A stretch of 64,000 nt of DNA from Candidatus Harrisonbacteria bacterium RIFCSPHIGHO2_02_FULL_40_20 (GCA_001818675.1 MHJF01000006.1:3157-67156), one strand, 5' to 3'. Positions 460 through 60,589 are shown, numbered from the stretch's first letter. Program-made: numbers and translations. The notes: a model not told the origin generated them from the letters alone.

Positions 460-1173
460 TTATTCTAATAAAGTTTCTTTTATATCTTCTAAATTGAGGT
501 GTTTAATCCATTCTTTTATATTTTTTCCATATTCGGTAGTTCCACCAAAATAGTTTAATAAAAATTCTCTTTGGGTAACGGATTGAAAATTTTTCTTTCC
601 TAAATAATCTATATGGCTACTCCAACGGTAATTTTCTAAAAATTGTATTGCTTTGTTATAATCTTTGATTTTTCTTTCTCTCCATTCCGGCGCTATTAAA
701 TCAAGGGGATTTAAATGAATATAATAGGGGATATGTATGAAATGAGCCTCTTGGTTGATGTGCACTAGTTTATATCTACCCTGAAATAAGGCACCGGATC
801 TTTGATATTTTTCATTGAAATATTTTGCATAACCCATATTAATTTTCTTCATAAACTGAGAAATTCCCTGATCATTCAGCGGTCTTAATAAAAGGTGATA
901 ATGATTATTCATTAAACAGAAAGCCAGAATTTCTACAAGTAATTTTCTTGGCTTTCTTTTCGAATCAATATATGGACGTCCGATGTCCATATATTGATTT
1001 TTCTTGTTTTGGCGGAAAAAGTAATTAACATTATTAGCGGACTCTAAATTATTAAATTCAAATAAGTCGTGAATAAATCGGAATCGATCAGAATCATCAA
1101 GAAACAGTTTTCTTTTATCCACGCCCCTATTAAGAACATGGTAAATATTACCAGCCGTACTCTTTCTTTTCAT
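460..1173 (-). CDS. IS200/IS605-family Y1 (HuH) transposase, REP-associated tyrosine transposase (RAYT)-like
   Basis: HuH motif NHYHLLL, conserved YHVLNRG N-terminus, C-terminal GRYK tyrosine region (COG1943-like); flanked by inverted REP hairpins. Confidence 0.7.
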   Translation of the reverse strand: MKRKSTAGNIYHVLNRGVDKRKLFLDDSDRFRFIHDLFEFNNLESANNVNYFFRQNKKNQYMDIGRPYIDSKRKPRKLLVEILAFCLMNNHYHLLLRPLNDQGISQFMKKINMGYAKYFNEKYQRSGALFQGRYKLVHINQEAHFIHIPYYIHLNPLDLIAPEWRERKIKDYNKAIQFLENYRWSSHIDYLGKKNFQSVTQREFLLNYFGGTTEYGKNIKEWIKHLNLEDIKETLLE

Positions 1174-2333: not shown

Positions 2334-2479
2334 ATTCGTGATCGAGGGCTCTTTATAAAAATGGCCTTATATAGTATATTTTAACATAGAAAGAGGGGGG
2401 AAGATAAAGCCAAAAGCCCAGTAATAATGAGGATTTTTACGGGATAGGCTGAAACTATTACCCCCCTTAATCGTTATCT

Positions 2480-3031
2480 ATGTTAGAAGGCGAAGATAAG
2501 CTAATAAAGCGAGCCCAAAAAGGTGAGGGGGATTGTTTTGGCGATTTATACGACCATTACTTGCCTCCGCTTTATAGATACATTCTTTTAAGGGTGAGCA
2601 GCAAACAAGAGGCTGAAGATTTAACTCACGAAGTGTTTGTCAGCGCTTGGGAAAATCTGAAGGGCTATCGCTTACGTGGATTTCCGTTTTCTAGCTGGTT
2701 ATATAATATTGCCAGGAATAAAGTGATTGATTATTACCGTACCCGCAAGATTAATGTGGATATTGATGAGGTTGATCCAGATTTATTTAAACTTGCATCT
2801 AGCGTGGAAAAAGAAATAGACTTCGCTTTGGATTTTAAAAAAGTTAAAACCGCAATGTCTAAATTAGGAGAAGAACAGCAAGATGTTTTGATAATGCGTT
2901 TTGTAGATGATCTATCCCATAGAGAAATTGCCGTGGCAATGGAAAAGACAGAGGGAGCAGTACGCTTAGTACAACACAGGGCGCTGCAATCATTAAGAGA
3001 AATTTTAGAACATGGAAGACCAAATAATTAA
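2480..3031 (+). CDS. ECF-type RNA polymerase sigma-70 family factor
   Basis: Region 2 (EDLTHEVFVSAWENL...YNIARNKVIDYYR) and region 4 (LSHREIAVAMEKTEGAVRLVQHRALQSLRE) motifs. Confidence 0.85.
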   Translation: MLEGEDKLIKRAQKGEGDCFGDLYDHYLPPLYRYILLRVSSKQEAEDLTHEVFVSAWENLKGYRLRGFPFSSWLYNIARNKVIDYYRTRKINVDIDEVDPDLFKLASSVEKEIDFALDFKKVKTAMSKLGEEQQDVLIMRFVDDLSHREIAVAMEKTEGAVRLVQHRALQSLREILEHGRPNN

Positions 3032-3445: not shown

Positions 3446-3563
3446 CCCGTTAGAGACGGGTCGCCAAAGGCGACCGTAACTCGGCCGTTTTAATAAAAAT
3501 CGACTTTTTATGATTAAAATTAAACAATATTGCAGAAATCATAGATTGGTTGTCTCTAGCGGG
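3446..3563 (+). mobile_element. 118-bp MITE-like element, copy 1 (terminal inverted repeats cccgttagagac / gtctctagcggg)
   Basis: Near-identical inverted copy at 31433-31550; ends 3 nt before an ATG. Confidence 0.6.
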
Positions 3564-3566
3564 ATA

Positions 3567-4346
3567 ATGTTTTTACTGGTTTTATTACCGGTTTTTTGGG
3601 TTCATCCCACGAATGCCCAATCCGAAGATTTAAAGACCGCTAAAGAAGCGGTTCAGCAAAGCTATGATAAATTAGTGGAAGTTCAGGGCGAGCAGACGTT
3701 AACTAAAGAAGAACAAGCTAAACAAGAGTTAGAAGCTTTAATTGCCGCTTTAAAAGAAGTTGTGCAATTTACCATTACTGAAACTGAAAGTTTAATTCAG
3801 CATTTATCGGCTATTAAGGGATTATCTGTAGAAACCGCCAAATTACAATTAGATTATTTAAAAGAATTAGACGAATTTTTAATTTATCAGCAAGAATTTT
3901 TGATTAAAATAACTCCTCAAGAAGAGGTTGGAGCCTTGACCTTAGTTGAGATTAAACAATTAGCTTTAGATTTTAAAAATTGGAGAGAAACGGTTTATGA
4001 TCCTGAAATTAAAAAGATAGTTAGTTTTATTATGGTATTTAAGGGTTCCGAGCTATTGAGTATAGCGACTAGCCGTTTTAATAAAATTGCTTTGGATTTG
4101 CGGCTATTCCAAAATTCAAAGTTAATTAAAGTAGATCTTTTGATGCCAGTATTACAGCAAGCCGGCGATTATTTGAAAGAGGCATCAAAATTAAATCAAG
4201 TAGCAATAAAATCTTTATTAGCTACTTCCACTGATCCAGTAGATACTAATAAATTAGTGGAGCGGGTGGTTGGGCTTATTAAATCTTCTTACGGCAAATT
4301 TTTAGAGATGAGTTCTTTGGTGAAGAAGATGCTTAATATCCAGTAA
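3567..4346 (+). CDS. secreted coiled-coil protein (start moved from 3510 to 3567)
   Basis: The ORF-track N-terminus lies inside the repeat element; Met at 3567 starts a signal peptide MFLLVLLPVFWVHPTNAQS. Confidence 0.5.
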   Translation: MFLLVLLPVFWVHPTNAQSEDLKTAKEAVQQSYDKLVEVQGEQTLTKEEQAKQELEALIAALKEVVQFTITETESLIQHLSAIKGLSVETAKLQLDYLKELDEFLIYQQEFLIKITPQEEVGALTLVEIKQLALDFKNWRETVYDPEIKKIVSFIMVFKGSELLSIATSRFNKIALDLRLFQNSKLIKVDLLMPVLQQAGDYLKEASKLNQVAIKSLLATSTDPVDTNKLVERVVGLIKSSYGKFLEMSSLVKKMLNIQ

Positions 4347-4838: not shown

Positions 4839-6299
4839 CTACCTGGCGTATTCTACCGCTCTAGTCTCTCTCACCACATTAACTTTAATTTCTCCCGGGT
4901 ATTTCATTTCGGTTTGAATTTTATGGGCGATATCTTTGGCTAATTGAAACGCGCCAAAGTCATCAATTTTTTCTGGCACTACGAAGACTCGGATTTCCCG
5001 GCCGGCGGATAAGGCATAGACGGTTTTTACGCCCGCAAAGCCAGAGGCGATTTTTTCCAATTCTTCCAAGCGTTTCAGATAGTTTTCTACGGTATCGCGC
5101 CGGGCGCCGGGACGGGCGGCGGAGATAATATCTGCGGCGGCTACGACAAAAGATTCTGGGGTGGCGAAAGGATATTCTTCATGATGAGCCTCCATAGCCT
5201 GGACTACCTCATCTTTAATGCCATATTTTTGAAGTATTTTTCGCCCCAGTTCCACATGGGTTCCTTCCACTTCATGGCTGATGGCTTTTCCGATATCGTG
5301 CAATAAAGCGCCCTTTTTCGCTGTTTCCACGTTCATTTTTAGTTCTGCGGCGATAATGCCGGAAATGTGGGCCATTTCCACGGAGTGCACTAAAACGTTC
5401 TGGCCATAGCTGGTTCGGAAATGCAGTTTGCCTAAAAGCTGGAGCAGTTCTTTTGGCAAATCAATAATTCCTACTTCTAAAGCGGATTGTTCACCAATTT
5501 CTATCATCCGTTTGTTAAGTTCTTGGCGGGCTTCCTCTACTTTTTCTTCAATTTTTGCTGGCTGAATTCGGCCGTCTTTAATTAATTTTTCTAATGCCAT
5601 TCGGGCAATTTCGCGTCGAACTGGATCAAAAGAAGAAATTATAATACTTTCCGGCGCCTCATCAATCACCAGCTCAACGCCAGTGGCTTTTTCTAGCGTA
5701 CGGATATTTCTGCCTTCGCGGCCAATAATTTTTCCTTTGATTTCTTCGTTAGGAAGCTGGAAAGAAGTAGTGGTGATATCGGCAACGTGGGATCGAGAAT
5801 AACGTTGGATTGCCCCAGTAATTATTTCCAACGATTTTTTTTCTATTTCTTCTTTTCTATCTTTTTCTAGTTTTTGGATAGTTTTTACGATTTCTTCCTG
5901 ATGACTTTGCTCTAGCATTTTCATAAGTTGCGCTAGGGCATCTTTGGCAGTTAAACCGGCGATTTTTTCAAGATCCGCCATGGTTCTTTTTCGTAATTCG
6001 CTTACTTCAAATTTATCGTTTTCTAAAGTTTTTTCTTCTTTTTCTAAGCGACTTTCTTTAAACCGAATATCGCTGGAATATTTTTCCAGCGTTTCTTCTT
6101 TTTTAATCAGCCGTTCTTCTAGGCGATCTAGCTGACTCTTTTTTTCTTGCCCTTCTTTTTTGGCCTCCTCTAGGAGTTGGGCGGCCTTTTGTTCAAGCGA
6201 TTTAGCTTTTTGGGAGGAGAGTAAGTAGTTTGCGAAGTAGCCTACGGCTAAGCCTAATACAAGAAATCCCCCCGCTGTTAATAGGGTTATTGAGTCCAT
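4839..6299 (-). CDS. rny: ribonuclease Y
   Basis: N-terminal TM helix, coiled coil, KH domain (IIGREGRNIRTLEKATGVELVIDE) and HD domain (LLHDIGKA). Confidence 0.9.
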   Translation of the reverse strand: MDSITLLTAGGFLVLGLAVGYFANYLLSSQKAKSLEQKAAQLLEEAKKEGQEKKSQLDRLEERLIKKEETLEKYSSDIRFKESRLEKEEKTLENDKFEVSELRKRTMADLEKIAGLTAKDALAQLMKMLEQSHQEEIVKTIQKLEKDRKEEIEKKSLEIITGAIQRYSRSHVADITTTSFQLPNEEIKGKIIGREGRNIRTLEKATGVELVIDEAPESIIISSFDPVRREIARMALEKLIKDGRIQPAKIEEKVEEARQELNKRMIEIGEQSALEVGIIDLPKELLQLLGKLHFRTSYGQNVLVHSVEMAHISGIIAAELKMNVETAKKGALLHDIGKAISHEVEGTHVELGRKILQKYGIKDEVVQAMEAHHEEYPFATPESFVVAAADIISAARPGARRDTVENYLKRLEELEKIASGFAGVKTVYALSAGREIRVFVVPEKIDDFGAFQLAKDIAHKIQTEMKYPGEIKVNVVRETRAVEYAR

Positions 6300-6384: not shown

Positions 6385-6478
6385 AGAGTGAGTGTTAGTA
6401 TTCCTTGACGATGATATCGACCAAGGAATGTCTTAACAAATTGTGGCTAAAAGACCCGCTTCGGCGGGTCTTTTAGTT
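6385..6478 (+). ncRNA. candidate small RNA (about 94 nt) with an internal hairpin and an intrinsic terminator
   Basis: Promoter at 6349-6377; hairpin attccttgacgatgatatcgaccaaggaat; terminator gacccgcttcggcgggtc followed by a T-run; no ORF. Confidence 0.4.
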
Positions 6479-9092: not shown

Positions 9093-11615
9093 ATGTTTAG
9101 ATGGTTTTTAAAAATTTTTAAATCTGACAATAAATATGTCCGCAATTTAGTTGCGGCTATTAACGCAATAGAGCCGGAGATTAAAGAATTTTCTAATGAA
9201 CGGCTGTTAGAAGATTCTCAAAGTTTAAGGCGACTGATTCAAGATAAGAAAATGAATTTAGAAGAGGCGTTGCCTCGGGCTTTTGCTTTGGTTCGGGAAT
9301 CGGCTAAAAGAACTTTAAATCAGCGGCATTTTGATGTTCAGTTAATGGCGGGCATTGCGTTGCATCAAGGAAGAATCGCGGAAATGAGAACCGGTGAAGG
9401 AAAAACTTTAGCCGCTACCGCGCCTGCTTATTTAAACGCGCTTTTTGGAAAAGGCGTGCATGTGGTAACGGTTAATGAATATCTGGCAAAAAGAGATGCG
9501 GTATGGATGGGGCAAATTTATCACGCGCTTGGCTTGAGGGTTTCTTGTTTAATTCACGAGGGAGCTTTGGCATATGACCCTTCTTATATTAAACAGTCAG
9601 CCGATGACCTGATTGATAAAGAGCGGGATATTACCGGAAGTTTTTTAGTTCAGGAAGAATTTTTAAGGCCGATTAGTCGTCGCGAAGCTTATTTAGCAGA
9701 CATTACTTATGGCACTAATCATGAGTTTGGTTTTGATTATCTGCGCGATAATCTTGTCCATCGTTTAGAAGATCAAGTGCAGGGCGGCCGCCGTTATTTT
9801 GCGATTGTTGACGAAGTGGATAGCATTTTAATTGATGAAGCTCGGACACCGCTGATTATTTCCGCCCCGGATACGGAATCCAGCCAATTCTATAAAGTTT
9901 TTGCCCGTGTTGCGCAGAATCTTGAGCCGGATACGGATTATTTGGTAGATGAAAAATTAAAAACCGCCGATATTACTCAAGGCGGCATTGATAAAGTGGA
10001 ACAACAGCTTCGGATTAAAGATTTATTTAGCGCGGAGAATTTGCGACTGACGCATTACTTGCAGGAAAGTTTGCGAGCCAAGGCTTTATTTTTGAAAGAC
10101 CGAGATTATGTTGTTAAAGATGGAGAGGTGATTATTGTTGATCAATTTACTGGCCGGATGATGCTGGGTAGGCGTTATTCTGGTGGGTTACATCAGGCAA
10201 TTGAGGCTAAAGAGGGTTTAACCGTGAATCAAGAGTCCCGCACTTATGCTCAAATTTCTATCCAAAATTATTTTCGGCTTTATGAAAAATTATCCGGTAT
10301 GACTGGCACAGCGCAAACTTCGGCGGAAGAATTTGATAAAGTTTATGGTTTGGAAGTTGTGAGTATTCCGACTAATAAAATAATGATTAGAAAAGCTTTG
10401 CCAGACACGATTTATAAAACTATAGAAGCTAAGTATCAGGCGATCGCCCAAGAAATAAAAGCCAGGCATAAAGCTGGCCAGCCGGTTTTAGTTGGCACTA
10501 TTTCTATTGAAAAGAACGAATATCTTTCTAAGATTTTAAAACAAGAGGGCGTGCCTCATGAAATGTTGAACGCCAAAAATCATGAACGGGAAGGTTCTAT
10601 TATTGCGCAAGCTGGCAAACCGGGCGCGGTTACGGTAGCAACGAATATGGCTGGCCGCGGCGTGGATATTATTTTGGGCGGCAATCCTCCGGAAATTTTA
10701 GAGTCGCAGAAGATAAAAGATTTAGGTGGTTTATTTGTTATTGGCACAGAACGGCATGATTCGCGGCGCATTGATAATCAGCTTCGCGGACGCGCAGGTC
10801 GGCAAGGTGATCCTGGATCTTCGCAATTCTTTTTATCTTTGGAGGATGATTTGATGAGGATTTTTGGCGGCGACAAACTTAAAAGTATGATGCAGTGGTT
10901 GAAAGTTCCGGACGATATGCCTATTGCTTCTAAGTCAGTTTCTCGCGCAATTTCGCAAGCGCAATCAAAAGTTGAAGGAATGAACTTTGACGCGCGTAAA
11001 CATTTATTGGAATATGACGATGTTTTAAATAAGCAACGTTTGGCGATTTATTTCAAAAGGCAAGATATTTTGGAGAATGGTGTTGTTGCGAGGATTCCAA
11101 AAAGCGAGGGAGAAGCTTTGCTTGCTGGCAGGCAGGAAATTAATATTAGCGGTGATGAAAATTCGCCCCGTAACAATGAGCCACTATCCCATGGAATAGC
11201 ACGGCAAATTTTAGGGATGTTGGATTTATTATGGATGAATCATTTGGAAAATATGGAAGCTTTGCGGGAGTCGGTTCGTTTGCGCGCGTATGGTCAGCAT
11301 GATCCGTTAGTTGAATACAGGCGTGAGGGGCATTTGCTTTTCCAACAACTGTTGGCGGATTTTGATAAGTGGCTAAAACAATCCGCTGAAGGTGGATTAT
11401 TCGCCCGACCAGATTTAAAAGATAAATCTGGTTTAGGGATGGAGGAAAACAGAGAAAATTTGCAAACTATGACTAATAACAATGACAATAACAAAATACC
11501 GAATCCGGATGTCATTAGTCATTCGTCATCGGTTATTATTAATAATAAGGTAGGTCGCAATGATCCTTGTCCCTGCGGCAGCGGGAAAAAGTATAAGAGG
11601 TGTCATGGAAAATAA
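9093..11615 (+). CDS. secA: preprotein translocase subunit SecA
   Basis: DEAD-like motor, preprotein cross-linking domain and C-terminal zinc finger CPCGSGKKYKRCHG. Confidence 0.95.
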   Translation: MFRWFLKIFKSDNKYVRNLVAAINAIEPEIKEFSNERLLEDSQSLRRLIQDKKMNLEEALPRAFALVRESAKRTLNQRHFDVQLMAGIALHQGRIAEMRTGEGKTLAATAPAYLNALFGKGVHVVTVNEYLAKRDAVWMGQIYHALGLRVSCLIHEGALAYDPSYIKQSADDLIDKERDITGSFLVQEEFLRPISRREAYLADITYGTNHEFGFDYLRDNLVHRLEDQVQGGRRYFAIVDEVDSILIDEARTPLIISAPDTESSQFYKVFARVAQNLEPDTDYLVDEKLKTADITQGGIDKVEQQLRIKDLFSAENLRLTHYLQESLRAKALFLKDRDYVVKDGEVIIVDQFTGRMMLGRRYSGGLHQAIEAKEGLTVNQESRTYAQISIQNYFRLYEKLSGMTGTAQTSAEEFDKVYGLEVVSIPTNKIMIRKALPDTIYKTIEAKYQAIAQEIKARHKAGQPVLVGTISIEKNEYLSKILKQEGVPHEMLNAKNHEREGSIIAQAGKPGAVTVATNMAGRGVDIILGGNPPEILESQKIKDLGGLFVIGTERHDSRRIDNQLRGRAGRQGDPGSSQFFLSLEDDLMRIFGGDKLKSMMQWLKVPDDMPIASKSVSRAISQAQSKVEGMNFDARKHLLEYDDVLNKQRLAIYFKRQDILENGVVARIPKSEGEALLAGRQEINISGDENSPRNNEPLSHGIARQILGMLDLLWMNHLENMEALRESVRLRAYGQHDPLVEYRREGHLLFQQLLADFDKWLKQSAEGGLFARPDLKDKSGLGMEENRENLQTMTNNNDNNKIPNPDVISHSSSVIINNKVGRNDPCPCGSGKKYKRCHGK

Positions 11616-16393: not shown

Positions 16394-16397
16394 GTTT

Positions 16398-16469
16398 TGT
16401 CCCCGCGAAGAATCGAACTTCGATCTACTCCTTAGAAGGGAGTCGTTCTGTCCATTGAACTACGGGGAC
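16398..16469 (-). tRNA. tRNA-Arg (anticodon TCT)
   Basis: Cloverleaf: acceptor GTCCCCG/CGGGGAC, anticodon loop CTTCTAA, T-loop TTCGATT. Confidence 0.75.
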
Positions 16470-16573
16470 ATCGGACAAAAAAATATTAGCAGATTCTATT
16501 GACATTAGCCACTTTTGTATTTTAAAATCTCTTTAGATTTTTGAAACCTCAGATTAGATAGAAAGGAAGAAAA

Positions 16574-17833
16574 ATGACTTATCGGCAACTGCGCACTGAT
16601 TTTGGAGCCTGGCTTTATGTGGCAGGAATGCCTCACGTCCATAGTGTTTCTTCCGGAGTCTTGGTATATGCCGGCACTATAGATGAAAGTTGGCCAAAAG
16701 AAGCTGGATTAGCCCATGCTTTTGAACATATGGTTTTTCAGGGGACTGCCCGTTTTCCTGATAGCCGGTCTGCCGCTGATTATTTGGAGAGCGTGGGTGG
16801 TTCGTCTAATGCTTGGACTTGGAAAGAGCACACTTTTTTCCACGCGCACGCGCCCGATACTGATTGGAAAAGGACTATAATTTGGCTGGCGGAAATTTTA
16901 AACGCCCCGCGATTTGATTCTAAGAAGATCGGTTCCGAAATGAAAATTATTTTAGAGGAGATTAAACGGCATCGGGACAATCCCAGTTCTTATGTCGGCG
17001 AGGCGGGTGAGGCGTTATTATATAGCGATCACCCTTTAGGCCGGTCTACTTTAGGGCTGGAAGAATCAGTATCGAGTTTTCAGAAAGAGGATTTTTTATC
17101 TTGGCAGGCGCAACATTATTATCCGGAGAATTTTGCTTTTTTGGTTGCCGGCAATGTAAATGCGAAAAGTGTATTAGATTTTATCAATAAATCTTTTAGT
17201 TCCGCAGCTACTAAACAGAATCGGAGATTGCCGCTTTTTGATCTTCCGCATCCGCCTGATTTTAAGCCGCCGATTAATGCGGAAAAAATTGTGGAGCGGG
17301 AAGTTGAGCAGGTGAATATTTATCTCGCCGCTCCGATTCCCGGTTTTTATACTCGAGAAACCGCAGTTTTGGATTTTTTTTCTGATATGTTGGGCGCTGG
17401 ATCGTCTTTCCCTCTTTTCCAGGAAGTTCGGGATAAGCTTGGTCTTTGTTATTCTATCGGGTCTGGGGTATATCGGTGGGACGATGTCGGTTCTTTTATT
17501 ATTTTTTTAGGAACAGACGTTAAACGTTGGAAGCTGGCTTTGGATACTATTTTTAAAGTTATTCGGAAAAGCGCTGGTGATCCGGCGCTGCTTAAAAAAA
17601 CCAAGCGGGTATTAAAGGGCCGGTTGGCGATAGGCGTGGATAGTTCTTTTGAAGTTCTTAATAAAATGTCTATGGATATGGTTTTTTGCGGATTGCCTCG
17701 GGGTCTTGAAGAAACGTTGGCGGAAATTCAAAGCGTTACTTTAAATGAAGTGTGGCAGGCAGTTAGACATTATTTAACTCCGGAAAAATTTGTGCGCGCG
17801 TTTGTTGCCCCGAAAGGATTTAAAACCAGTTAA
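16574..17833 (+). CDS. M16-family zinc peptidase (pitrilysin/insulinase-like)
   Basis: HxxEH zinc-binding motif HAFEHMVFQG and the two-domain M16 architecture. Confidence 0.8.
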   Translation: MTYRQLRTDFGAWLYVAGMPHVHSVSSGVLVYAGTIDESWPKEAGLAHAFEHMVFQGTARFPDSRSAADYLESVGGSSNAWTWKEHTFFHAHAPDTDWKRTIIWLAEILNAPRFDSKKIGSEMKIILEEIKRHRDNPSSYVGEAGEALLYSDHPLGRSTLGLEESVSSFQKEDFLSWQAQHYYPENFAFLVAGNVNAKSVLDFINKSFSSAATKQNRRLPLFDLPHPPDFKPPINAEKIVEREVEQVNIYLAAPIPGFYTRETAVLDFFSDMLGAGSSFPLFQEVRDKLGLCYSIGSGVYRWDDVGSFIIFLGTDVKRWKLALDTIFKVIRKSAGDPALLKKTKRVLKGRLAIGVDSSFEVLNKMSMDMVFCGLPRGLEETLAEIQSVTLNEVWQAVRHYLTPEKFVRAFVAPKGFKTS

Positions 17834-17870
17834 TAAATTTTTCTCCCCCGCAAAGCGGGGGATTTCTTTT

Positions 17871-17926
17871 TGGACCTACGGGGAGTCGAACCTCGACTTT
17901 CCCGATGTCCATCGGGACGTAACATC
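17871..17926 (-). pseudogene. tRNA-Ala-like 3' fragment (T-arm plus acceptor arm) containing a REP-like hairpin
   Basis: GTTCGACTCCCCGTAGGTCCA matches 18 of 21 positions of the 3' end of the adjacent tRNA-Ala; contains the hairpin tcccgatggacatcggga, which shares the REP core cgatgtccat; no 5' half is present. Confidence 0.45.
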
Positions 17927-17930
17927 TTTT

Positions 17931-18004
17931 TGGTGGACCTAAGGAGAATCGAACTCCTACCTTTTCCATGCCATGGAAACGTAATACCATTTTACTATAG
18001 GCCC
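17931..18004 (-). tRNA. tRNA-Ala (anticodon GGC), CCA encoded
   Basis: Acceptor GGGCCTA/TAGGTCC with G3:U70, anticodon loop ATGGCAT, 3' CCA present. Confidence 0.8.
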
Positions 18005-18101
18005 TAAAACAATTATTGAATAATTGTTCGGGCGATTCACTAGTTGGTGAATTTAGCCCGAGCAGGCAAAATTTGCCCTTGAAAAGGATTATAAAGTAAA
18101 T

Positions 18102-18673: not shown

Positions 18674-18704
18674 ATTGGCTATAATTAGCCAGAGAGCAAC
18701 AAAT

Positions 18705-18776
18705 GCCCTCGTAATTCAATGGACAGAATAGCTCCGTCCTAAGGAGAAAATGACTGTTCGATTCAGTCCGAGGGCA
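18705..18776 (+). tRNA. tRNA-Arg (anticodon CCT)
   Basis: Acceptor GCCCTCG/CGAGGGC, anticodon loop GTCCTAA, T-loop TTCGATT. Confidence 0.75.
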
Positions 18777-18778
18777 AA

Positions 18779-18832
18779 GGCTAAATCTGCCAGCTGGCGG
18801 ATCGCCCGATTGCCAATAGCGGTTTAGGGAGG
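18779..18832 (+). promoter_or_regulatory. partial copy of the recurrent ggctaaatc...ccagctggcgg...gtttagggagg motif in the tRNA-Arg/tRNA-Ser spacer
   Basis: First 32 nt match the motif upstream of 40929 and 55413; 3' end overlaps the 5' end of tRNA-Ser. Confidence 0.5.
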
Positions 18833-18914
18833 GTTGGCAGAGTGGTTTAACGCGCCGCACTCGAAATGCGGTTGGGGAGAAATCCCCTCGGAGGTTCGAA
18901 TCCTCCACCCTCCG
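18828..18914 (+). tRNA. tRNA-Ser (anticodon CGA)
   Basis: Long variable arm; anticodon loop CTCGAAA; acceptor GGAGGGT/ACCCTCC. Confidence 0.8.
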
Positions 18915-18916
18915 TT

Positions 18917-18987
18917 GGGCCTATAGTTCAGTGGCAGAACGCCTCGTTTGCAACGAGGAGGCGCCAGTTCAATTCTGGCTAGGTCCA
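18917..18987 (+). tRNA. tRNA-Ala (anticodon TGC)
   Basis: Acceptor GGGCCTA/TAGGTCC with G3:U70, anticodon loop TTTGCAA. Confidence 0.8.
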
Positions 18988-19013
18988 TTACAGAAAAGGT
19001 ACGGGGCAAGTGA

Positions 19014-21135: not shown

Positions 21136-21326
21136 CTTTTGTAAGTTGATATTGAAATAGCGTCTCAAAGACGCTATTTTTATTAGAGTTGGTGGGGGTG
21201 GTTTGACTACCGCCGTTGGCGGGGCCTCGCTATGAACGGTGGGTGGTTTAAAGAGTTTGTCTTGTTTTCGTTTTGTTTGATCTGCCGGTTGGCGGAGAAG
21301 CTACAAAACGCAATCCCGCACAAAGC

Positions 21327-21413
21327 GGAAGGTTGGCAGAGTGGTCTAACGCGCCGCACTTGAAATGCGGTATCCCGGAAACGGGATCGGAGGTTCGAAT
21401 CCTCCACCTTCCG
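21327..21413 (+). tRNA. tRNA-Ser (anticodon TGA)
   Basis: Long variable arm, anticodon loop CTTGAAA. Confidence 0.8.
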
Positions 21414-21460
21414 AAAAAATAAAAATCCTCGACGTAAGGTCGGGGATTTTGTGTATAAAT

Positions 21461-22603
21461 TTATTCGTTTTTTCGAATTTCAAATCTTGGATATAATTCT
21501 TTCATTCGTTCCACTAAACCGGTGTAAGCGATTTCTTCTTCAGAAGCCATCGCGACTCCGAAAAATCCTTGTTCGCGCATATAGCTGGATTTAGCTAGAG
21601 CTTTTTGTCGCGCCTCTTCCCATTCCAAGCCTTCAAATATATCAATCTCTTCTTCGGTAAATTGCCCATTTTGATTCATAGAAAAAGCGAGACAAGAAAC
21701 AATTGGCTGGCAATATCCGCCGCGCACTGGCGTTTGAATAGATACTGGCATCAGAGCCATTGTATGGCTGCCGCGGCAATCGCCAGTGACAAACGGGCAG
21801 TCTTTAAACGGTTCTACAACTTCTTCTGTCGCCGAGAAAATTCCTTGCGTTCGGACAATCATTATAGGATCATCTTTACCGGTGTATTTTCCGGCAATAT
21901 TGTGCAGGCGCGTGGCGGAAACAGATACGAATTGTTCATTAGGATAAGCGTTAGAGTAGGCCGCTTCTATGGCAAATCGATCAATATTTCTTAAGAGCGC
22001 TGCTAATTTGATATGCCCAAGCCCTTCAGCTGTATTAATTTTGATAATTCGATCAGTATTTTTGTCTTTATGGTCCATATCAATGACGGTTGCGGTAAAT
22101 CCTAGGAAGAGTTTTGGGGAAAGAAGTAATCCGCCGTTTCGCATCGGATTGCAGAGTGTGTTCCAAAGCGCGAAATTGTACGCGCCCGGGCCGCATTTAT
22201 CCGCGGCAAACACTAAAAATGCTTCGGCTGGCCGATGGTTAGGTAAAAGTTCAAATTCTGTTTCTGCCACTGCCGGGCCTGCGCCCCGAACGTTCCCCGA
22301 AGGCGCATCCACTAATAGATCCTGCCCCGCTCCATAAAAACCGTAATGCTTGGCGATACGAGTTGCTTCTTTAAAAACATTCCAAGCAAATAAATGAATT
22401 AACGAAGCGCCTTTGCCAAGAGTATGGCTCATAATTAAACAAAGATCGTCGCCGGTGTAAGTAACTATTCCGTCAATCAATAAACCGGAGGTTTTGGCTT
22501 GGCGCATTAAATCTTCGCAAGATTGAACCATCGTATCGCCTGGTTTAGTGTGGCCACCAATACTTCCTACATCAGCTTTGATCACTGATAGAGTAACGCG
22601 CAT
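21461..22603 (-). CDS. fbp: fructose-1,6-bisphosphate aldolase/phosphatase (class V FBPase, archaeal type)
   Basis: N-terminus MRVTLSVIKADVGSIGGHTKP and full-length similarity to bifunctional FBP aldolase/phosphatases; GC content above its surroundings. Confidence 0.8.
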   Translation of the reverse strand: MRVTLSVIKADVGSIGGHTKPGDTMVQSCEDLMRQAKTSGLLIDGIVTYTGDDLCLIMSHTLGKGASLIHLFAWNVFKEATRIAKHYGFYGAGQDLLVDAPSGNVRGAGPAVAETEFELLPNHRPAEAFLVFAADKCGPGAYNFALWNTLCNPMRNGGLLLSPKLFLGFTATVIDMDHKDKNTDRIIKINTAEGLGHIKLAALLRNIDRFAIEAAYSNAYPNEQFVSVSATRLHNIAGKYTGKDDPIMIVRTQGIFSATEEVVEPFKDCPFVTGDCRGSHTMALMPVSIQTPVRGGYCQPIVSCLAFSMNQNGQFTEEEIDIFEGLEWEEARQKALAKSSYMREQGFFGVAMASEEEIAYTGLVERMKELYPRFEIRKNE

Positions 22604-22609
22604 AGTCGT

Positions 22610-22670
22610 CTCCCTAAATCAAAACGGGGTTTTGATCGGCTATAGCCCGATGGGCTCGCCCATTTAGGGG
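22610..22670 (-). promoter_or_regulatory. 5'-UTR structured motif, fbp copy (cccctaaatgggcgagcccatcgggctatagccgatcaaaaccccgttttgatttagggag)
   Basis: Minus-strand copy of the ctaaat...caaaacCYCgttttg...atttagggag motif, 6 nt upstream of the fbp ATG. Confidence 0.55.
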
Positions 22671-22793
22671 CGAACAATTTACGAAGCAAATTGTTTTAGC
22701 CTTTTCAATTTTAAAGAACATTTTTCGCTAAAATATTAGCGTACTAAATATAACTTGGTCAAATGCGAATTAGTTATTTGATATAATAAAGAA

Positions 22794-38227: not shown

Positions 38228-38376
38228 AGTTGGGCAAGCCCAGCACCGAATCGAGTATTTCGTTTTTTTCAACGCTGGCAACCCAATGTAATTTAAGGCT
38301 TAGAACGGGTATTATTAACTCTCAAAATATAGTAGGCAAAAACGTTTTGAGCGTTGCAATACTCGATCTGGTGACT

Positions 38377-38460
38377 GGGCAGGTGGCAGAGCGGTCAATT
38401 GCATCTCGCTGTAGACGAGACGCCTTTCAGGCTACGGGGGTTCGAATCCCTCCCTGCCCA
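38377..38460 (+). tRNA. tRNA-Tyr (anticodon GTA)
   Basis: Long variable arm, anticodon loop CTGTAGA, acceptor GGGCAGG/CCTGCCC. Confidence 0.75.
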
Positions 38461-38505
38461 TAAAAATTCCCGAAGCAGTATTTATGCTGCTTCGGGAATT
38501 TTTAT
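38461..38505. terminator. perfect palindromic bidirectional terminator aaaaattcccgaagcag...ctgcttcgggaattttt
   Basis: Read directly. Confidence 0.6.
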
Positions 38506-38557
38506 GGATGGATTCGAACCTAGTAACTCTTGATGATTTTTAGTATAATCTACTGAT

Positions 38558-38628
38558 GCCGGTGTAGCTCAATGGCAGAGCAACGCTTTTGTAAAGCGAA
38601 GACAGGTGTCCGATTCACCTCACCGGCT
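38558..38628 (+). tRNA. tRNA-Thr (anticodon TGT)
   Basis: Acceptor GCCGGTG/CACCGGC, anticodon loop TTTGTAA, T-arm AGGTG-TCCGATT-CACCT. Confidence 0.7.
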
Positions 38629-38724
38629 CCCAAGCGGCAGACCTCGCATTATGCGGGGCCTTTATGTTTTAGAAGGCTTCATAGTTGGAAAGAACTTGGT
38701 TTGTTGATTTTTTAAAATAGCAGT

Positions 38725-40712: not shown

Positions 40713-40783
40713 GGGGGTGTCGTCCAACGGCAGGACTCTGGTCTCCAAAACCAGGTATTACGGTTCGAATCCGTACGCCCCCG
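40713..40783 (+). tRNA. tRNA-Trp (anticodon CCA)
   Basis: Acceptor GGGGGTG/CGCCCCC, anticodon loop CTCCAAA. Confidence 0.75.
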
Positions 40784-40866
40784 CAAAATTTTTCGATTCC
40801 TTCATAATTGGCAATTCTCAAATTGCGTGATAAAATTTTGACAGCGGATTTTTGAAAATTAAAAAA

Positions 40867-40924
40867 GGCTAAATCCGCCAGTTGGCGGATCGCCCGATCA
40901 AAACCTCGTTTTGATTTAGGGAGG
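40867..40924 (+). promoter_or_regulatory. 5'-UTR structured motif, copy upstream of the 40929 gene (ggctaaatccgccagttggcggatcgcccgatcaaaacctcgttttgatttagggagg)
   Basis: Matches 55349-55406 at nearly every position; ends 4 nt before the ATG and contains the Shine-Dalgarno sequence. Confidence 0.6.
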
Positions 40925-40928
40925 AAGC

Positions 40929-41894
40929 ATGAGCCGCTTTTGCCTATTATTTTTATTAACGCCATTTTTCACCTTGCTTTGTTCCTGTGTTCACTATCAG
41001 ATGGATAACCCCAGTTACGCGGGTCCAAAGCCGTTGCCTGATGAAATAGCCCAGCTATATTCCTATGAAAAACACTCGATTAAGTATATAGAAAAAATAG
41101 TAGAGGAAAGCCCGAGATATACCCTTAAAAGAGTTGAGTTTATTGCGCCAGTCAAAGTTGCGGCGATTAAAAAAACCAAGATTGAAATTGATTATTACGA
41201 TGTTAAAGAACCGAAAATCGCTCCGGTTATTTTGGTCTTGCCAATTTTAGATGGCAATAGCGCTATATCTAATTTTTACGCGAAATATTTTGCTAATAAT
41301 GGTTACGCCGTTTTAATAGTAAATCGCAACGCCACGATTTTGCAGGCAGAAAGCATTAAGGGAATTGAACTTGCCCTTAGGCAAAATGTTATAGACCTAA
41401 AACGGGTACTGGATTGGGTAGAAACTAAAAATGATTTGGATAAAAATAATATCGGGGTTTTTGGAATTAGTTTAGGCGCCATCAACAGTGCTCTGATTGC
41501 TGCGTTGGATAAACGGATTAAAGCAGCGGTTTTAGGATTAGCCGGGGGCGACTTGCCTTATATTTTAACTCATTCTCACGAAAAAACCGTTCAAGAAGGA
41601 ATCGCCCGAATTAAAGAAAAAAATCATTGGAACGACGATGTTTTTTATTGCGAACTCCGGTGCGCGATCCAAACTGATCCGATAAAATACGCCAAATATA
41701 TAGACGCGCGGAAAGTTTTAGTGGTGGTCGCATTATTGGACAACGTAATTCATACCAAAAAAGGGAAGGCGTTGATTGCGGCGATTGGTATGCCCGAACG
41801 GATCTATATCGTTAGCGGCCATTATACTGCTATTTTTTATATTTTTTATACACGAAGCAAGACTTTACAGTTCTTTAATGAACGTTTGCGATAG
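40929..41894 (+). CDS. alpha/beta-hydrolase fold esterase-like lipoprotein
   Basis: Signal peptide with Cys (FFTLLCSC); nucleophile elbow GISLG; dienelactone-hydrolase-like layout. Confidence 0.55.
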   Translation: MSRFCLLFLLTPFFTLLCSCVHYQMDNPSYAGPKPLPDEIAQLYSYEKHSIKYIEKIVEESPRYTLKRVEFIAPVKVAAIKKTKIEIDYYDVKEPKIAPVILVLPILDGNSAISNFYAKYFANNGYAVLIVNRNATILQAESIKGIELALRQNVIDLKRVLDWVETKNDLDKNNIGVFGISLGAINSALIAALDKRIKAAVLGLAGGDLPYILTHSHEKTVQEGIARIKEKNHWNDDVFYCELRCAIQTDPIKYAKYIDARKVLVVVALLDNVIHTKKGKALIAAIGMPERIYIVSGHYTAIFYIFYTRSKTLQFFNERLR

Positions 41895-55225: not shown

Positions 55226-55348
55226 ATCTTAAATATTGTACAATTTTTAATTTTTAATTTCTAATTTTAGATTAAGAGGCCACTTGATTTTTTAAAAGTT
55301 TTCCGCGAAAATCATTTTAGTAGTTTTCCGCACCTTAATAAATGAAAA

Positions 55349-55406
55349 GGCTAAATCCGCCAACTGGCGGATCGCCCGATCAAAACCTCGTTTTGATTTA
55401 GGGAGG
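55349..55406 (+). promoter_or_regulatory. 5'-UTR structured motif, copy upstream of the 55413 gene
   Basis: ggctaaatccgccaactggcggatcgcccgatcaaaacctcgttttgatttagggagg, 6 nt before the ATG. Confidence 0.6.
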
Positions 55407-55412
55407 TATGCA

Positions 55413-57488
55413 ATGACAAAGAAAGTGGTTAGTCCCGAATTGACGGCGATAGAACAGAAGATGGTAGAAATTTTAACTGCCGGTCCTTGTCATATTAAGA
55501 CATTATCTTCGGCTTTAGATAAGTCTTCAGCTGGCGTTGTTGAGGTGGCGCAGAAACTTCGTGATAAAGGGATTTTTATTGTAAAGCATGAAGAGGTTTT
55601 TTATCTAGGCAATGCGTCAATTGAATTATCGCCTGAAGATATGATGATCAAAGATTTTGAAGTGAAAATCGGTTTTATTGCGGATACAATGTTAGGTAGT
55701 AAATCTGAACAGCCGACGAATTTGTGCCGCGCTTTTCAGATTGCGGAAAATGAAGGCGTGGATGTTATGATTCACCTTGATGTTTCCGCCGGTAAACCAA
55801 CGCCTCTTAAGCAAGATGAATTTCATAAATTAACTGCTGATGAGCAGGCGCAGTATATTGTTCAGAATTATCCTCAATCTAAGAAATTTAGAACTCGCCT
55901 TATTTCCGGTTATCACGATATGCAATGGCGAAAAGATGGCAGGAATATTTTAGCGGAAATTTGTATGCAGCGTGATGATCTTGTCTATCGCGGAGATTGG
56001 CAATCTGATTTCCCTTTACGGCGAGGCCCCGAAAAAGGCAAACGTTGGCCAGTTTTAAAAGCCGCTTATCATGGCGGTGATGATTCGCCTTATTCCAAGT
56101 CTTATCCTATTCAGGGATTTGCGGAAAATCTTATTCAGGACGTGAAAGATCTTTATTCCGGCGATCGTCCAGATATTGTGGCGGTGGCTGGGCAAGGTAT
56201 TTTCTGCGATCTTTCCGGCGGTATTATTCCGGAGTTAATTTCTGTCCCGGGTTTGCGAACGATTCCGCAGTCAATGATGAGAAAGAAGCGCCGTTCGGTA
56301 GTTCCGACTATCGGGTTAACAATTCTCAATATTCGATTCACTAAAGAAGGCGCATTTTCGGTTCAAAAAGCCATTTATCCGCTTTTAGCGATTAAGGATG
56401 ATTATCGTGAAAAATTCTCCGATAACGAATCTATTATGAAAAGCTTGACTGTTGATGGCAAAAAGATTTTGAAATTATTGGAGCAATCTCCAAAGAGTTT
56501 AGGCGAACTTACGCAGGCCATGGATCGTAGCGATGATTCCGTGAAGGCTTTGATTATTAAGCTGCAAAAAGTTGGATTTAATATTCAAGAGCCGGATAAC
56601 GGAGAGAATCCGTCTAAAAATTATCAACTTTGGATGGGTTCACGAGCGGGTTTTAACGCTCCCAAAATTGATTTTAAGAAATATTTTCACACAACCATTA
56701 GGCGCGGCGGAGTTTCCGACACCCATATTGGGCACAATTCTGAACTTTTAAAGATTGTTCACGAGGCTTACGATCTTTTTGTGGAGAAAAAAATTGAAGT
56801 TGTGTATCATTGCGGCGATATTACTAATGGTTTGCCAAAACACGAAGAATACAATAAAGGTGAGGTGCGTGAATCGCGCGCTACGCCACTGACTAATGAT
56901 GTGATTGCTCTTTTTCCGGAACGCAAAGGCATTACGACTCTTGCTATTACCGGAGATCACGACCGTTGGTTTTTAGATAAAGTTGGTTATGATCTTTTAG
57001 ATCCGATTTCAAAAATTCGCCCAGATATTAGGCATCTTGGCATTCAAGAAGGTGAACAATCAGATGGCCAGATTATAACTTGGCTTCGGCATTACAACTG
57101 GGGCACTGGATACGCCAAGTCGTATAAGGGCCAGCAGGTTGCCGAGGGCTTACTGAAAGAAATTGAAAAGGAAAATTCTAAGTATCGCGGTAAAATTTTT
57201 TCTCTGTTGTCGGGTGGCGGCCATGTTTATTGCGCTATGCTTTATAAGGGCATTGTTTTCATTATGATGCCCTGCTTGCAGGGTAAGACGAAATTTATCA
57301 CTGGCTTAGGAAAGCTTTCTGATGTCGGGTATGTGATTTATTCGATTACCCATAGCGAGTCTGGTTTGTTAACAAGATTTACGATTGAATATTTTGATCG
57401 CGGCGCTGAAGCCCTAGCTTTGATTCGTCAGGATGTTGAAATAAGAAAGAGAAACCTTGAAACGGTTTTAATTAAATCTAAAAAGTAA
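55413..57488 (+). CDS. duplicated-module protein: [winged helix + degenerate metallophosphoesterase] followed by [winged helix + intact calcineurin-like metallophosphoesterase]
   Basis: C-terminal half carries MPE motifs SDTHIGH, GDITNG and GDHDRW; N-terminal half has degenerate equivalents (IGFIADTMLG, VMIHLDVSAGK); two wHTH-like segments. Confidence 0.5.
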   Translation: MTKKVVSPELTAIEQKMVEILTAGPCHIKTLSSALDKSSAGVVEVAQKLRDKGIFIVKHEEVFYLGNASIELSPEDMMIKDFEVKIGFIADTMLGSKSEQPTNLCRAFQIAENEGVDVMIHLDVSAGKPTPLKQDEFHKLTADEQAQYIVQNYPQSKKFRTRLISGYHDMQWRKDGRNILAEICMQRDDLVYRGDWQSDFPLRRGPEKGKRWPVLKAAYHGGDDSPYSKSYPIQGFAENLIQDVKDLYSGDRPDIVAVAGQGIFCDLSGGIIPELISVPGLRTIPQSMMRKKRRSVVPTIGLTILNIRFTKEGAFSVQKAIYPLLAIKDDYREKFSDNESIMKSLTVDGKKILKLLEQSPKSLGELTQAMDRSDDSVKALIIKLQKVGFNIQEPDNGENPSKNYQLWMGSRAGFNAPKIDFKKYFHTTIRRGGVSDTHIGHNSELLKIVHEAYDLFVEKKIEVVYHCGDITNGLPKHEEYNKGEVRESRATPLTNDVIALFPERKGITTLAITGDHDRWFLDKVGYDLLDPISKIRPDIRHLGIQEGEQSDGQIITWLRHYNWGTGYAKSYKGQQVAEGLLKEIEKENSKYRGKIFSLLSGGGHVYCAMLYKGIVFIMMPCLQGKTKFITGLGKLSDVGYVIYSITHSESGLLTRFTIEYFDRGAEALALIRQDVEIRKRNLETVLIKSKK

Positions 57489-57536: not shown

Positions 57537-57748
57537 TATTCTCTATGTGTGTCATTGCGAGGCCATAAAGCCGAAGCCCTGCCTGCCGGCAGGCAGGAAT
57601 CTAACATTAATGTTTTTTGTAAGATCGCCGCGCTCCTTGCGGTCGCTCGCGATGACAAAACAAAATAAGGGAGTTGCCAAATTTATTTTTCAGATTATTA
57701 TTAAGAATAGTCAGTTGAAGCGTACTTTAAAAATAAAATCTTGATTTT

Positions 57749-59613: not shown

Positions 59614-59666
59614 ATAAAACCCTCCTTCAGCATTACGTTGAAGGAGGGCATTTTTTTAAAAAATTG

Positions 59667-59737
59667 AGCGAGAGACGGGAATCGAACCCGCGTATCCTGC
59701 TTGGAAGGCAGGCGCACTACCACTGTGCTACTCTCGC
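59667..59737 (-). tRNA. tRNA-Gly (anticodon TCC)
   Basis: Acceptor GCGAGAG/CTCTCGC, U73 discriminator, anticodon loop CTTCCAA. Confidence 0.75.
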
Positions 59738-59816
59738 AGACAATTCTTCTTTTGGTGCGGAAGAAAAAATGGGCTTACTTGCTAAGAAGACGCCTATATA
59801 CTATAAATAATTTAAG

Positions 59817-60422
59817 ATGAAATTAAAATCAAGATATAGAATTTTCATAATCGCAGGCATCTTTGTGGGCGGTTTTATTTTATTAGGCAAGATGGTGTTT
59901 TTTCCGTCTACGTACATACCAGCTAAATTCACCGAGGCTAGGCTGGAAGGCGCCGCTATTGCCCAAAAAATCGTTGCTTTATCTGGAGGAGCGTTGGCAA
60001 GTTTAGAAAAAATATCAGAATATGATAAAAATGGCGAAACCGCCGAAGCTTTGATTTTAATTTCTCAGCAATTGATTGCTAACCGCGTTACTCAAGAAGA
60101 AGCAGTTAATCTTTCCAGACAGTTAGAAAAAATGGCTCGATTTTTATCAAGTATTAAGCCATCGAATGCTCGCCAGAAAGCTATGGAAGCCATAACTTCG
60201 GAAGTCGCTTTAGTTAGCCGATTGATAAGTTATAATGATTATTTAAAACAGCTTTTTGAAGTATTAAGCGCTAAATTTAATCATCGTTACAGCAATATTT
60301 ATGAATCCAGGGATCAAGTAGGGGGATTGATCCAAAAAGTGAACGAAGAAGCGCAAGCTATTAATGAATTTGACGGGCGTTTCAATAAAGCCCTCGCAGA
60401 ATTAGATAAAATCGTATTATAA
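59817..60422 (+). CDS. hypothetical membrane-anchored protein
   Basis: One N-terminal TM helix, then a helical domain. Confidence 0.45.
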   Translation: MKLKSRYRIFIIAGIFVGGFILLGKMVFFPSTYIPAKFTEARLEGAAIAQKIVALSGGALASLEKISEYDKNGETAEALILISQQLIANRVTQEEAVNLSRQLEKMARFLSSIKPSNARQKAMEAITSEVALVSRLISYNDYLKQLFEVLSAKFNHRYSNIYESRDQVGGLIQKVNEEAQAINEFDGRFNKALAELDKIVL

Positions 60423-60518
60423 TTGCAAGAAGTGTTTGGTCAGGCAACCGGAGTGTAGTATAACGGCAGTACCTGCCTGCCGGCAGGCAGGCGCGTGTCT
60501 ACCCCGTATCAAAATTAA

Positions 60519-60589
60519 CAGGGTATAGTGTAACGGCAGCACGAGTCCTTTGGGAGGATTTAGTCTCGGTTCGAATCCGAGTACCCTGA
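60519..60589 (+). tRNA. tRNA-Pro (anticodon TGG)
   Basis: C1:G72 pair, anticodon loop TTTGGGA with G37, T-arm CTCGG-TTCGAAT-CCGAG. Confidence 0.7.

Follow-up and report, generated by a model that had tools for sequence, protein, structure and literature searches.

The window analysed here is a 64,000-nt stretch of DNA from Candidatus Harrisonbacteria (Parcubacteria, Patescibacteria), and the element under study lies in it just upstream of fbp, the gene of a class V fructose-1,6-bisphosphate aldolase/phosphatase. SecA and a Y1 protein assign the DNA to this lineage, and the protein P0241 shows 100% identity to one from a RIFCSPHIGHO2_02_FULL metagenome-assembled genome. An earlier note on this DNA had described a motif of the 5' untranslated region there, and the minus-strand sequence that it quoted, cccctaaat gggcgagcccatcgggctatagccgatc aaaaccccgttttg atttagggag acgact ATG, agrees letter for letter with positions 22670 to 22601. 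The gene behind it was also correctly named, since the minus-strand open reading frame (ORF) matches PF01950. The 23-nt 3' core of the motif, AAACCCCGTTTTGATTTAGGGAG, is found again at 40901 and 55383 with one mismatch each, which is the C/T change in the P3 loop that had been pointed out; in shuffled sequence the expected number of such matches is 0. The Shine-Dalgarno (SD) sequence GGGAG of fbp is retained 6 nt ahead of the ATG, and the leader is strongly folded (-37.2 kcal/mol over 113 nt, z -3.2). A promoter-like sequence, TTGACC-18-TAATAT, is located upstream of the element at 22762-22733 (one site, compared with 0.9 expected by chance); if this site is used, the element would be transcribed.

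To place the fbp sequence among its relatives, covariance models were built from homologs. Instead of the four copies that had been claimed, these models give six copies in the window (table below). Three of them lie at SD sequences (fbp, the hydrolase gene and the gene of a 691-amino-acid protein), two at the 5' ends of tRNA genes and one in frame within secA. According to profile matches of the Pfam/NCBIfam type, the genes behind the three SD-adjacent copies are functionally unrelated, the 691-amino-acid protein having a weak metallophosphoesterase match. Two nucleotides, both in the P2 loop, distinguish copy A from copy B, and the flanks of the two are unrelated. Along the window the orientations are +, -, +, -, +, + over 44 kb, following the local direction of the genes. 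A sequence at 6445-6478 (CTAAAA...TTTTAG) was considered as a further copy and rejected as an ordinary GC-rich terminator.

Table. Position of fbp and of the element copies in the window. The host copy is the fbp copy apart from the 28-nt segment; R1 and R2 denote covariance-model scores; slashes mark the ends of an element.
Feature	Position	Strand	Details
fbp, class V fructose-1,6-bisphosphate aldolase/phosphatase	21461-22603	-	PF01950 416 bits, NF041126 396 bits; ORF of 380 amino acids, ATG at 22603
SD sequence GGGAG of fbp	22610-22614	-	The element ends with the first G; the GG after it is the junction dinucleotide
Composite fbp-leader copy	22608-22703	-	R1 33.2 bits, E 7e-6; R2 36 bits, E 2.7e-6; includes 4-nt and 6-nt flanks
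Host copy, left half	22699-22668	-	CTAAA (22699-22695); P2 ACAATTTG-CTTCG-TAAATTGT (22694-22674); TCG and CCC (22673-22668)
Putative 28-nt partial copy, opposite orientation	22640-22667	+	With flanks, parsed as GG/CTATAG CCCGATGGG C TCGCCC ATTTAG/GG
Host copy, right half	22637-22614	-	GATC-AAAAC-CCC-GTTTT-GAT (P3) and TTAG
Copy F, in frame within secA (9093-11615)	11369-11442	+	Element 11373-11436; R2 54.4 bits; encodes LKQSAEGGLFARPDLKDKSGLG
Copy D, adjoining tRNA-Ala(GGC)	17998-18060	-	Element 18056-18004; R2 48.2 bits
Copy E, filling the tRNA-Arg(CCT)/tRNA-Ser(CGA) spacer	18777-18833	+	Element 18781-18827; R2 45.9 bits
Copy A, canonical, in the SD sequence of an alpha/beta-hydrolase lipoprotein gene (40929-41894)	40865-40925	+	Element 40869-40919; R1 52.3 bits, R2 63.8 bits
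Copy B, canonical, in the SD sequence of the gene of a 691-amino-acid protein (55413-57488)	55347-55407	+	Element 55351-55401; R1 50.9 bits, R2 62.8 bits

As DNA, the unit reads GG/CTAAAW-hairpin-WTCG-YC-CGATC-hairpin-GATTTAG/GG and is about 45-66 nt long; the RNA consensus is R-G-G / CUAAA-(W P2 W)-UCG-Y C C G-(AUC P3 GAU)-UUAG / G-R. It consists of a hairpin unit, a central pyrimidine dinucleotide and an inverted hairpin unit, the left unit (CTAAATC-hp-GATCG) and the right unit (CGATC-hp-GATTTAG) being reverse complements of each other in the consensus. With its short length, its terminal inverted repeats CTAAA(W)C ... G(W)TTTAG and its multiple copies, six in the window and at least 93 across the loci examined (numbered with L), it resembles in these respects a miniature inverted-repeat transposable element (MITE). 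True relatives were found in metagenome-assembled genomes (MAGs) of Patescibacteria in a scan of one genome per species, and a scan of metagenomes with a gapped pattern gave at least 119 stretches, many of them of groundwater or small-filter-fraction origin; viral contigs yielded 0 matches to the gapped pattern. Around one copy, a MAG of Candidatus Oleincola secundus (Atribacterota; L019) is identical across about 620 nt to Bacterium isolate M50B90 (L015), a different bin from the same study. As this identity is probably a binning error, the presence of the element outside Patescibacteria is doubtful and not established.

Covariation was analyzed in 80 forward-strand matches, in an alignment fitted to the model. 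Paired cells amounted to 98.8%, compared with 74.5% in shuffles, and the covariation score was 0.566 as against 0.124 after shuffling; none of 500 shuffles reached 0.566, and slid controls did not exceed 0.073. Variation on both sides of a pair was seen at all seven pairs of P2 and at six of the seven of P3, i.e., at 13 of the 14 hairpin pairs, and the four terminal pairs CUAA/UUAG never vary in this set. Copies found only with the model vary at the base of P3 (GAAC, GACC, GAUU). A search of the whole window against Rfam 15 returned nothing but tRNAs at the gathering score; at E<=10, the fbp copy, copy A and the canonical copy of L020 gave noise (8-22 bits, with cut-offs of 33-100), and there was no similarity to the hammerhead, twister, pistol, hatchet and HDV models. 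Searches of the literature, by strings of sequence and by subject, turned up no account of such a family, and neither Rfam 15 nor the searchable literature appears to describe it.

The fbp copy differs from the others in its composite structure. Its element proper extends from C22699 to G22614, with flanking GG at 22701-22700 and 22613-22612, and a single full-length covariance-model match covers 22608-22703 on the minus strand, so that the motif does not start at 22670 as had been described. The canonical 5' end is present at 22701-22668 (-) as GGCTAAAA, the hairpin CAATTTGCTTCGTAAATTG and TTCGCCC; with its GG, this left half (GG CTAAA A-CAATTTG-CTTCG-TAAATTG-T TCG CCC) is near-identical to the left halves of L094 and L100. 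The right half, which with its CC and GG flanks spans 22639-22612 (-), is canonical as well. The middle hairpin said to have been replaced is instead an extra segment of about 30 nt, absent from every other copy, and the ordinary first hairpin of the family is still there, farther upstream at 22694-22674. The supposed replacement is not homologous to the P2 of the other copies, and the P1 strand cccctaaat combines the CCC of the host copy with the segment's own 5' end; the reported lengthening of P1 by one base pair comes to two pairs under the pairing that had been proposed. What was offered as compensatory evolution, a different self-complementary sequence, is thus an insertion (22667-22640 plus a duplicated CC).

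The extra segment contains the ends of the element, the junction box and one small hairpin. It is placed exactly in the central CC of the host copy, with the CC duplicated at 22639-22638, and a weak full-length plus-strand match to the model runs over it (R2; 22610-22673, 23.3 bits, E 0.002). We infer from this arrangement that a partial copy of 28 nt sits, in antisense, inside the central CC, the alternative being that the segment arose by local rearrangement rather than by nested insertion. In the first case, an element would have entered the SD sequence, and a partial copy, reversed, would later have entered the central CC of the first. The arrangement was found in no other locus examined. 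It is identical in four other samples and is therefore not an assembly artefact. Arrays of the element were observed elsewhere: L007 carries tandem copies (5918-6087, minus strand, and 3489-3661, plus strand) in which three full units have common junction GGs, and L004:693-850 consists of a left half, a full unit and four tandem right halves (TCAAAACNNNGTTTTGATTTAGGA, 24-nt period). Such arrays suggest recombination between half-units.

Comparison of orthologs allowed filled and empty sites to be distinguished. The SecA protein of the window reads ...LLADFDKW-LKQSAEGGLFARPDLKDKSGLG-MEENRE..., and six homologs with 67-69% identity read ...FEKWMEENKE... or equivalents; they are without exactly the 22 residues encoded by the element, and the corresponding 66 nt equal the 64-nt element plus 2. 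A further SecA homolog (P0123, 72% identity) has another extra segment at the same site, W-LHNFSQTQINADQNADKRGL-LYED..., with one more large insertion beyond it; the site may be a recurrent hot spot of insertion. For fbp, the closest ortholog (86% identity, with the same divergent P-type ATPase as neighbour) has the leader ...ataaaaagaggtaactaaATG, which gave no match to the model with filters off, and the orthologs at 72, 69 and 67% identity had no element either in the same kind of search. One other fbp ortholog (L051) has a canonical copy at its SD sequence.

The secA copy is one of many within genes. Sense copies lie within long ORFs, with the frame open, in 18 of 93 cases and in two registers (WLKP..GSPD..DLG and AKS..IARS..GFRE), and 3-6 antisense copies were also found within long ORFs. 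Apart from secA, the hosts include pheS, with the element after DTFW in three species, and the genes of class I and class II aminoacyl-tRNA synthetases. When the element plus 2 nt was removed in silico, the inserted length was divisible by three in 18 of the 20 copies whose excision restores a spanning ORF (binomial probability about 2e-7 by our own calculation); elsewhere the lengths were split 26/20/27 among the three phases. The divisibility and the open frames argue that the ORF copies are translated and not spliced, and intron-like excision was excluded on the same grounds. Copies within genes would persist only as whole codons without a stop, and would then be translated.

The flanks of the element follow rules. 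Left-flank positions 3 and 4 equal right-flank positions 57 and 58, and both dinucleotides are complementary to junction positions 33 and 32. Position 4 equals 58 in 89 of 93 copies and position 3 equals 57 in 85 of 93, a pattern in which a target duplication and an element-borne GG beside a target GG are indistinguishable. The triples at positions 4, 32 and 58 are GCG (73), AUA (12) and GUG (3) with few exceptions, and one copy has A3/U33/A57. Counted as pairs, 4-32 is GC in 66, AU in 10 and GU in 3 copies, and 32-58 is CG in 64, UA in 10 and UG in 3, counts compatible with an internal guide for target and cleavage sites and also with a pairing in RNA. The two alternative junction pairings are 96.3% and 98.1% paired and thus equally good by their counts. 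No exceptions occur at the pair 33-57, compared with eight at 3-33; the right dinucleotide therefore probably belongs to the element.

The reconstructed target is purine-rich (a-GG/a-g-a, the slash marking the point of insertion). The pre-insertion site is AAAAGG/AGGAAGCATG for copy A, i.e., an AAGGAGG SD sequence, and GAAAAGG/AGACGACTATG for fbp; for tRNA-Ala it is ctgctcGG/GCCTATAG, an intact tRNA 5' end, and tRNA-Ser and the tmRNAs are alike. Insertion would occur at a purine dinucleotide, mostly GG with GA and AG variants, with a net gain of the element plus 2 nt. Owing to the final G of the element and the GG that follows, insertion into AAGGAGG would regenerate an SD sequence, and insertion into the initial nucleotides of a tRNA or tmRNA gene would regenerate the 5' end. 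Because the SD sequence or the 5' end is restored in this way, copies at these sites are tolerated.

The stable-RNA copies bear on the possibility that the element is an RNA-processing module, a kind of punctuation at whose 3' edge cleavage, by the element itself, by RNase P or by another nuclease, frees the 5' ends of tRNAs, tmRNAs and mRNAs. Over all loci, eight of the nine co-oriented tRNA or tmRNA genes downstream of a copy start 0-1 nt past UUUAG. In the window, the last G of the UUUAG of copy D is position +1 of tRNA-Ala(GGC), and tRNA-Ser(CGA) begins at 18828, immediately after the UUUAG of copy E. Small ribozymes likewise combine a conserved junction core with variable stems, and the tandem arrays would suit such a role. 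However, the abutment follows from the targeting of GG and the regeneration of the tRNA 5' GG, including two antisense copies that adjoin tRNAs beginning with GCC and so obey the GG rule on the opposite strand. In addition, the ORF copies are read through, in multiples of three and without a stop, which would hardly be expected if cleavage were obligatory, and no known ribozyme model was matched at E<=10. Processing is accordingly a highly improbable explanation. The window contains 12 tRNA genes (within 1240-1310, 16397-18004, 18704-18988, 21326-21414, 38376-38630, 40713-40784 and 59666-60589), among them three tRNA-Ala isoacceptors and an Arg/Ser/Ala cluster whose Arg-Ser spacer is wholly a copy of the element.

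A second explanation is a cis-regulatory leader RNA: a three-way junction in which pairing of YCC with the 3' GGR hides the first Gs of the SD sequence and the 5' GG acts as competing strand, so that translation of fbp and the other genes is switched. Small pseudoknot or junction riboswitches such as preQ1-II and SAM-II occlude SD sequences, and the element resembles them in its compact conserved junction, its variable stems and a 3' strand over the ribosome-binding site. In line with this, the three SD-adjacent copies of the window lie 5-7 nt before start codons with the SD sequence overlapping their 3' flank, their leaders are more stable than shuffles (z -2.1 to -3.2), the hairpins covary strongly, and the covariation of junction and flanks is compatible with two alternative 2-bp pairings. 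On the other hand, the genes downstream form no coherent set, the same element is found in frame within ORFs, at the 5' ends of tRNAs and tmRNAs and in loops of terminators, in both orientations, and its distribution among orthologs is sporadic, with none at the closest orthologs of fbp. A 2-bp switch would also be energetically weak, and Rfam has no match. The reading as a YCC-GGR riboswitch or pseudoknot was dropped in view of the ORF-internal copies and the empty orthologous sites, and we regard a regulatory leader of any such kind as very unlikely. We found no evidence for a dedicated regulatory RNA of fbp and no sign of fbp-specific regulation. Of the earlier interpretation, the recurrence of an element with evolutionarily maintained hairpins adjoining the SD sequence has stood; the evidence offered for it and the function proposed have not, nor has its description as a 5'-untranslated-region motif as such.

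Several copies that seemed to stand alone sit in the GRA loop of a strong hairpin that existed before (GC-GRA-GC; -24.4 kcal/mol in L015, -22.2 in L061 and -13.1 in L020), in some cases followed by a run of T. An outer closing stem that covaries had made a standalone small RNA a candidate, which was rejected, as this stem belongs to a pre-existing terminator whose loop was hit.

We compared the element with known mobile repeats. REPINs are inverted doublets of REP (repetitive extragenic palindromic) hairpins that are mobilised by RAYT (REP-associated tyrosine transposase) proteins of the Y1 type (PMC3116915, PMC3337134). The element resembles them as an inverted doublet of hairpins with a short spacer, present in many copies per genome, whose structure is kept as the stems drift and which persists for long, and a RAYT-like HUH/Y1 gene occurs in the same genome. 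It differs in its foot, CTAAA/TTTAG rather than the GTAG of REP sequences, and in its location, REPs and REPINs being extragenic whereas 18 of 93 element copies lie in ORFs; moreover, the Y1 gene of the window is flanked by another palindrome. Rickettsia palindromic elements (RPEs) insert in frame into genes (PMC10969869). Like these, the element is a palindromic repeat found in frame in unrelated and often essential genes, translated as an extra peptide in tolerant surface regions, and also located beside or in stable-RNA genes. RPEs, however, are about 100-150 bp long, confined to Rickettsia and unrelated in sequence, in contrast to about 45-66 nt in Patescibacteria. To our knowledge, no covariation between an internal dinucleotide and the target has been described for RPEs.

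In two families of insertion sequences (IS), parts of the pattern are met with again. IS607 serine transposases carry out exchange over a GG core found at the target and at the transposon end (PMC6188088), and the GG at both junctions of most element copies would imply an identical 2-bp core. Yet IS607 elements are kilobase-sized and lack the terminal inverted repeats that the element has, and their mechanism does not predict a complementary dinucleotide inside it. In IS608, of the IS200/IS605 family, target and cleavage sites are read through base pairs formed with a guide that lies within the element next to a hairpin (PMC3201880, PMC5934647). The Harrisonbacteria element shares subterminal hairpins with IS608, and a guide at the foot of a hairpin would explain the covariation of flanks and junction. 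In IS608, however, each end is read by its own guide, the sites are tetranucleotides, terminal inverted repeats are absent and orientation is linked to the replication fork, whereas in the element studied here one dinucleotide fits both junctions, the termini form inverted repeats and orientations alternate within 64 kb. This alternation, following the genes, argues against fork-directed insertion. Overall, REPINs are closest in form and RPEs in behaviour, with IS607 and IS608 fitting parts of the pattern. Because each of these classes differs from the element in at least one defining property, we consider it a variant of that kind and a member of none of them.

A candidate for the mobilising enzyme is encoded at 460-1173 (-), directly after a tRNA-Ala gene. 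Its product is an IS200-like Y1/HUH protein (PF01797, 42.7 bits; motifs NNHYHLLL and LFQGRYK) with 'REP-associated tyrosine transposase' as its best NCBIfam match (42.6 bits, under the 80-bit cut-off). The perfect palindrome ATCTATGGACATCSGATGTCCATAGAT borders the gene on either side (430-456 and 1203-1233), and a third copy of it, at 972-990 inside the ORF, encodes YMDIGRPYI. The protein family is 60-73% identical across many classes of Patescibacteria, each homolog examined has its own species-specific flanking palindrome, and the gene looks like a domesticated, vertically inherited transposase. A role as mobiliser of the element is not supported, given the different flanking palindrome and the absence of the element near five homologs. 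No resolvase-type match was present among the part of the window ORFs that was scanned, no search being aimed at serine recombinases. Two other features were observed that may concern mobility or repeats. Genes of LAGLIDADG homing endonucleases are found beside element clusters at two unrelated loci, L007:4728-5477 (+; PF14528/PF00961) and L088, where a LAGLIDADG-like ORF with the N-terminus FFGIMIGDGGI lies 24 nt downstream of the copy at 2478-2533 (-); this proximity may be a coincidence or a hint on mobility. Identical perfect palindromes of 20 nt, CCTGCCTGCCGGCAGGCAGG, occur 2.9 kb apart at 57578-57597 and 60472-60491, one near a ClpB-like gene and the other near tRNA-Pro, and may represent another small repeat family.

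The fbp sequence belongs to a family whose hairpins covary, with conserved ends and a conserved junction between stems that are free to vary, and whose copies, in frame within genes or at other tolerated sites, follow the same junction rules and add the element plus 2 nt to sites that are empty in relatives. We therefore consider it, with a probability of roughly 0.72, a copy of a short non-autonomous insertion element of the MITE/REPIN/RPE-like kind that targets GG and is dispersed in Patescibacteria. On this reading it resembles selfish DNA and is not a dedicated control RNA of fbp. Its insertion would be driven by an enzyme, either using the hairpins that form in single-stranded DNA or by a crossover of 2 bp, and a host function is presumably absent.

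Several observations weigh against this interpretation. The intergenic DNA of fbp is too diverged for an empty site to be defined to the base, and neither an excision product nor an empty allele within a population was seen, the four other samples sharing the fbp arrangement. No mobilising enzyme was identified, 91 kb around the five Y1 homologs contained no copy in the model search, and the loci examined revealed no autonomous parent that shares the element's ends, although no systematic search for one was made. The invariance of the ends and junction is partly by construction, as the gapped pattern fixed CTAAA, YCCGATC and GATTTAGGR. Within ORFs there is a sense-strand bias (18 compared with 3-6), much of which is due to the ratio of GG to CC of 1.54 on sense strands and to G-rich SD sequences and tRNA 5' ends; the ratio accounts for it only partly. 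Finally, orthologous copies in different species have kept both hairpins with changed sequences (in pheS after DTFW, at the 3' end of rplJ and upstream of secE), which could be a sign of selection on the RNA at the level of the host, and not of selfishness alone.

The last two points lead to a third alternative, in which the element spread by insertion and was then domesticated, its RNA or single-stranded DNA form now serving as a binding platform for a conserved protein of Patescibacteria or as a stabiliser of transcripts in translation-related genes that are highly expressed. Orthologous positions retained with compensatory changes, which besides pheS and the region upstream of secE include the rplJ-rplL junction and the leaders of tmRNA and tRNA-Ala, would fit this, as would the enrichment near translation genes and the sense-strand bias, and REPIN-RAYT systems are argued in a preprint to persist vertically for very long (bioRxiv 10.1101/2021.07.10.451892). 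Yet translation genes predominate in the small genomes of Patescibacteria in any case. The same distribution would result from repeated insertion at GG sites that tolerate it or from gene conversion among copies. In addition, a partner protein was not identified, and the five Y1 homologs lack the element in their surroundings. We judge domestication unlikely, although less so than either processing or leader regulation.

Returning to the insertion element, its junction rules allow a more specific and tentative proposal, against which we would still set the longer odds: it could be a minimal guide-directed mobile unit, in which Y32 C33 pairs both with the target's two purines and with the 3' junction of the element itself, so that a change of the dinucleotide would retarget it. 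As part of the same tentative proposal, such a unit would favour runs of purines that are single-stranded in transcribed DNA or in RNA, such as SD sequences, tRNA and tmRNA 5' ends and terminator loops.

The finding has consequences for annotation, as recurring 'leader motifs' beside ribosome-binding sites in Patescibacteria should not be taken as riboswitches. The element adds 16-22 residues to essential proteins (SecA, PheS and other aminoacyl-tRNA synthetases) and lengthens the leaders of tRNAs and tmRNAs. Six copies in 64 kb stand against the expectation that extremely reduced genomes contain almost no selfish DNA. The three-way covariation of both junction dinucleotides with an internal one provides a testable hypothesis of base-pair-guided target choice by an element of about 50 nt. 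If the guide-directed proposal is true, it would represent a new mechanistic class of very small transposable elements, thriving in bacterial genomes of the most streamlined kind, and would also supply essential proteins with new peptide segments.

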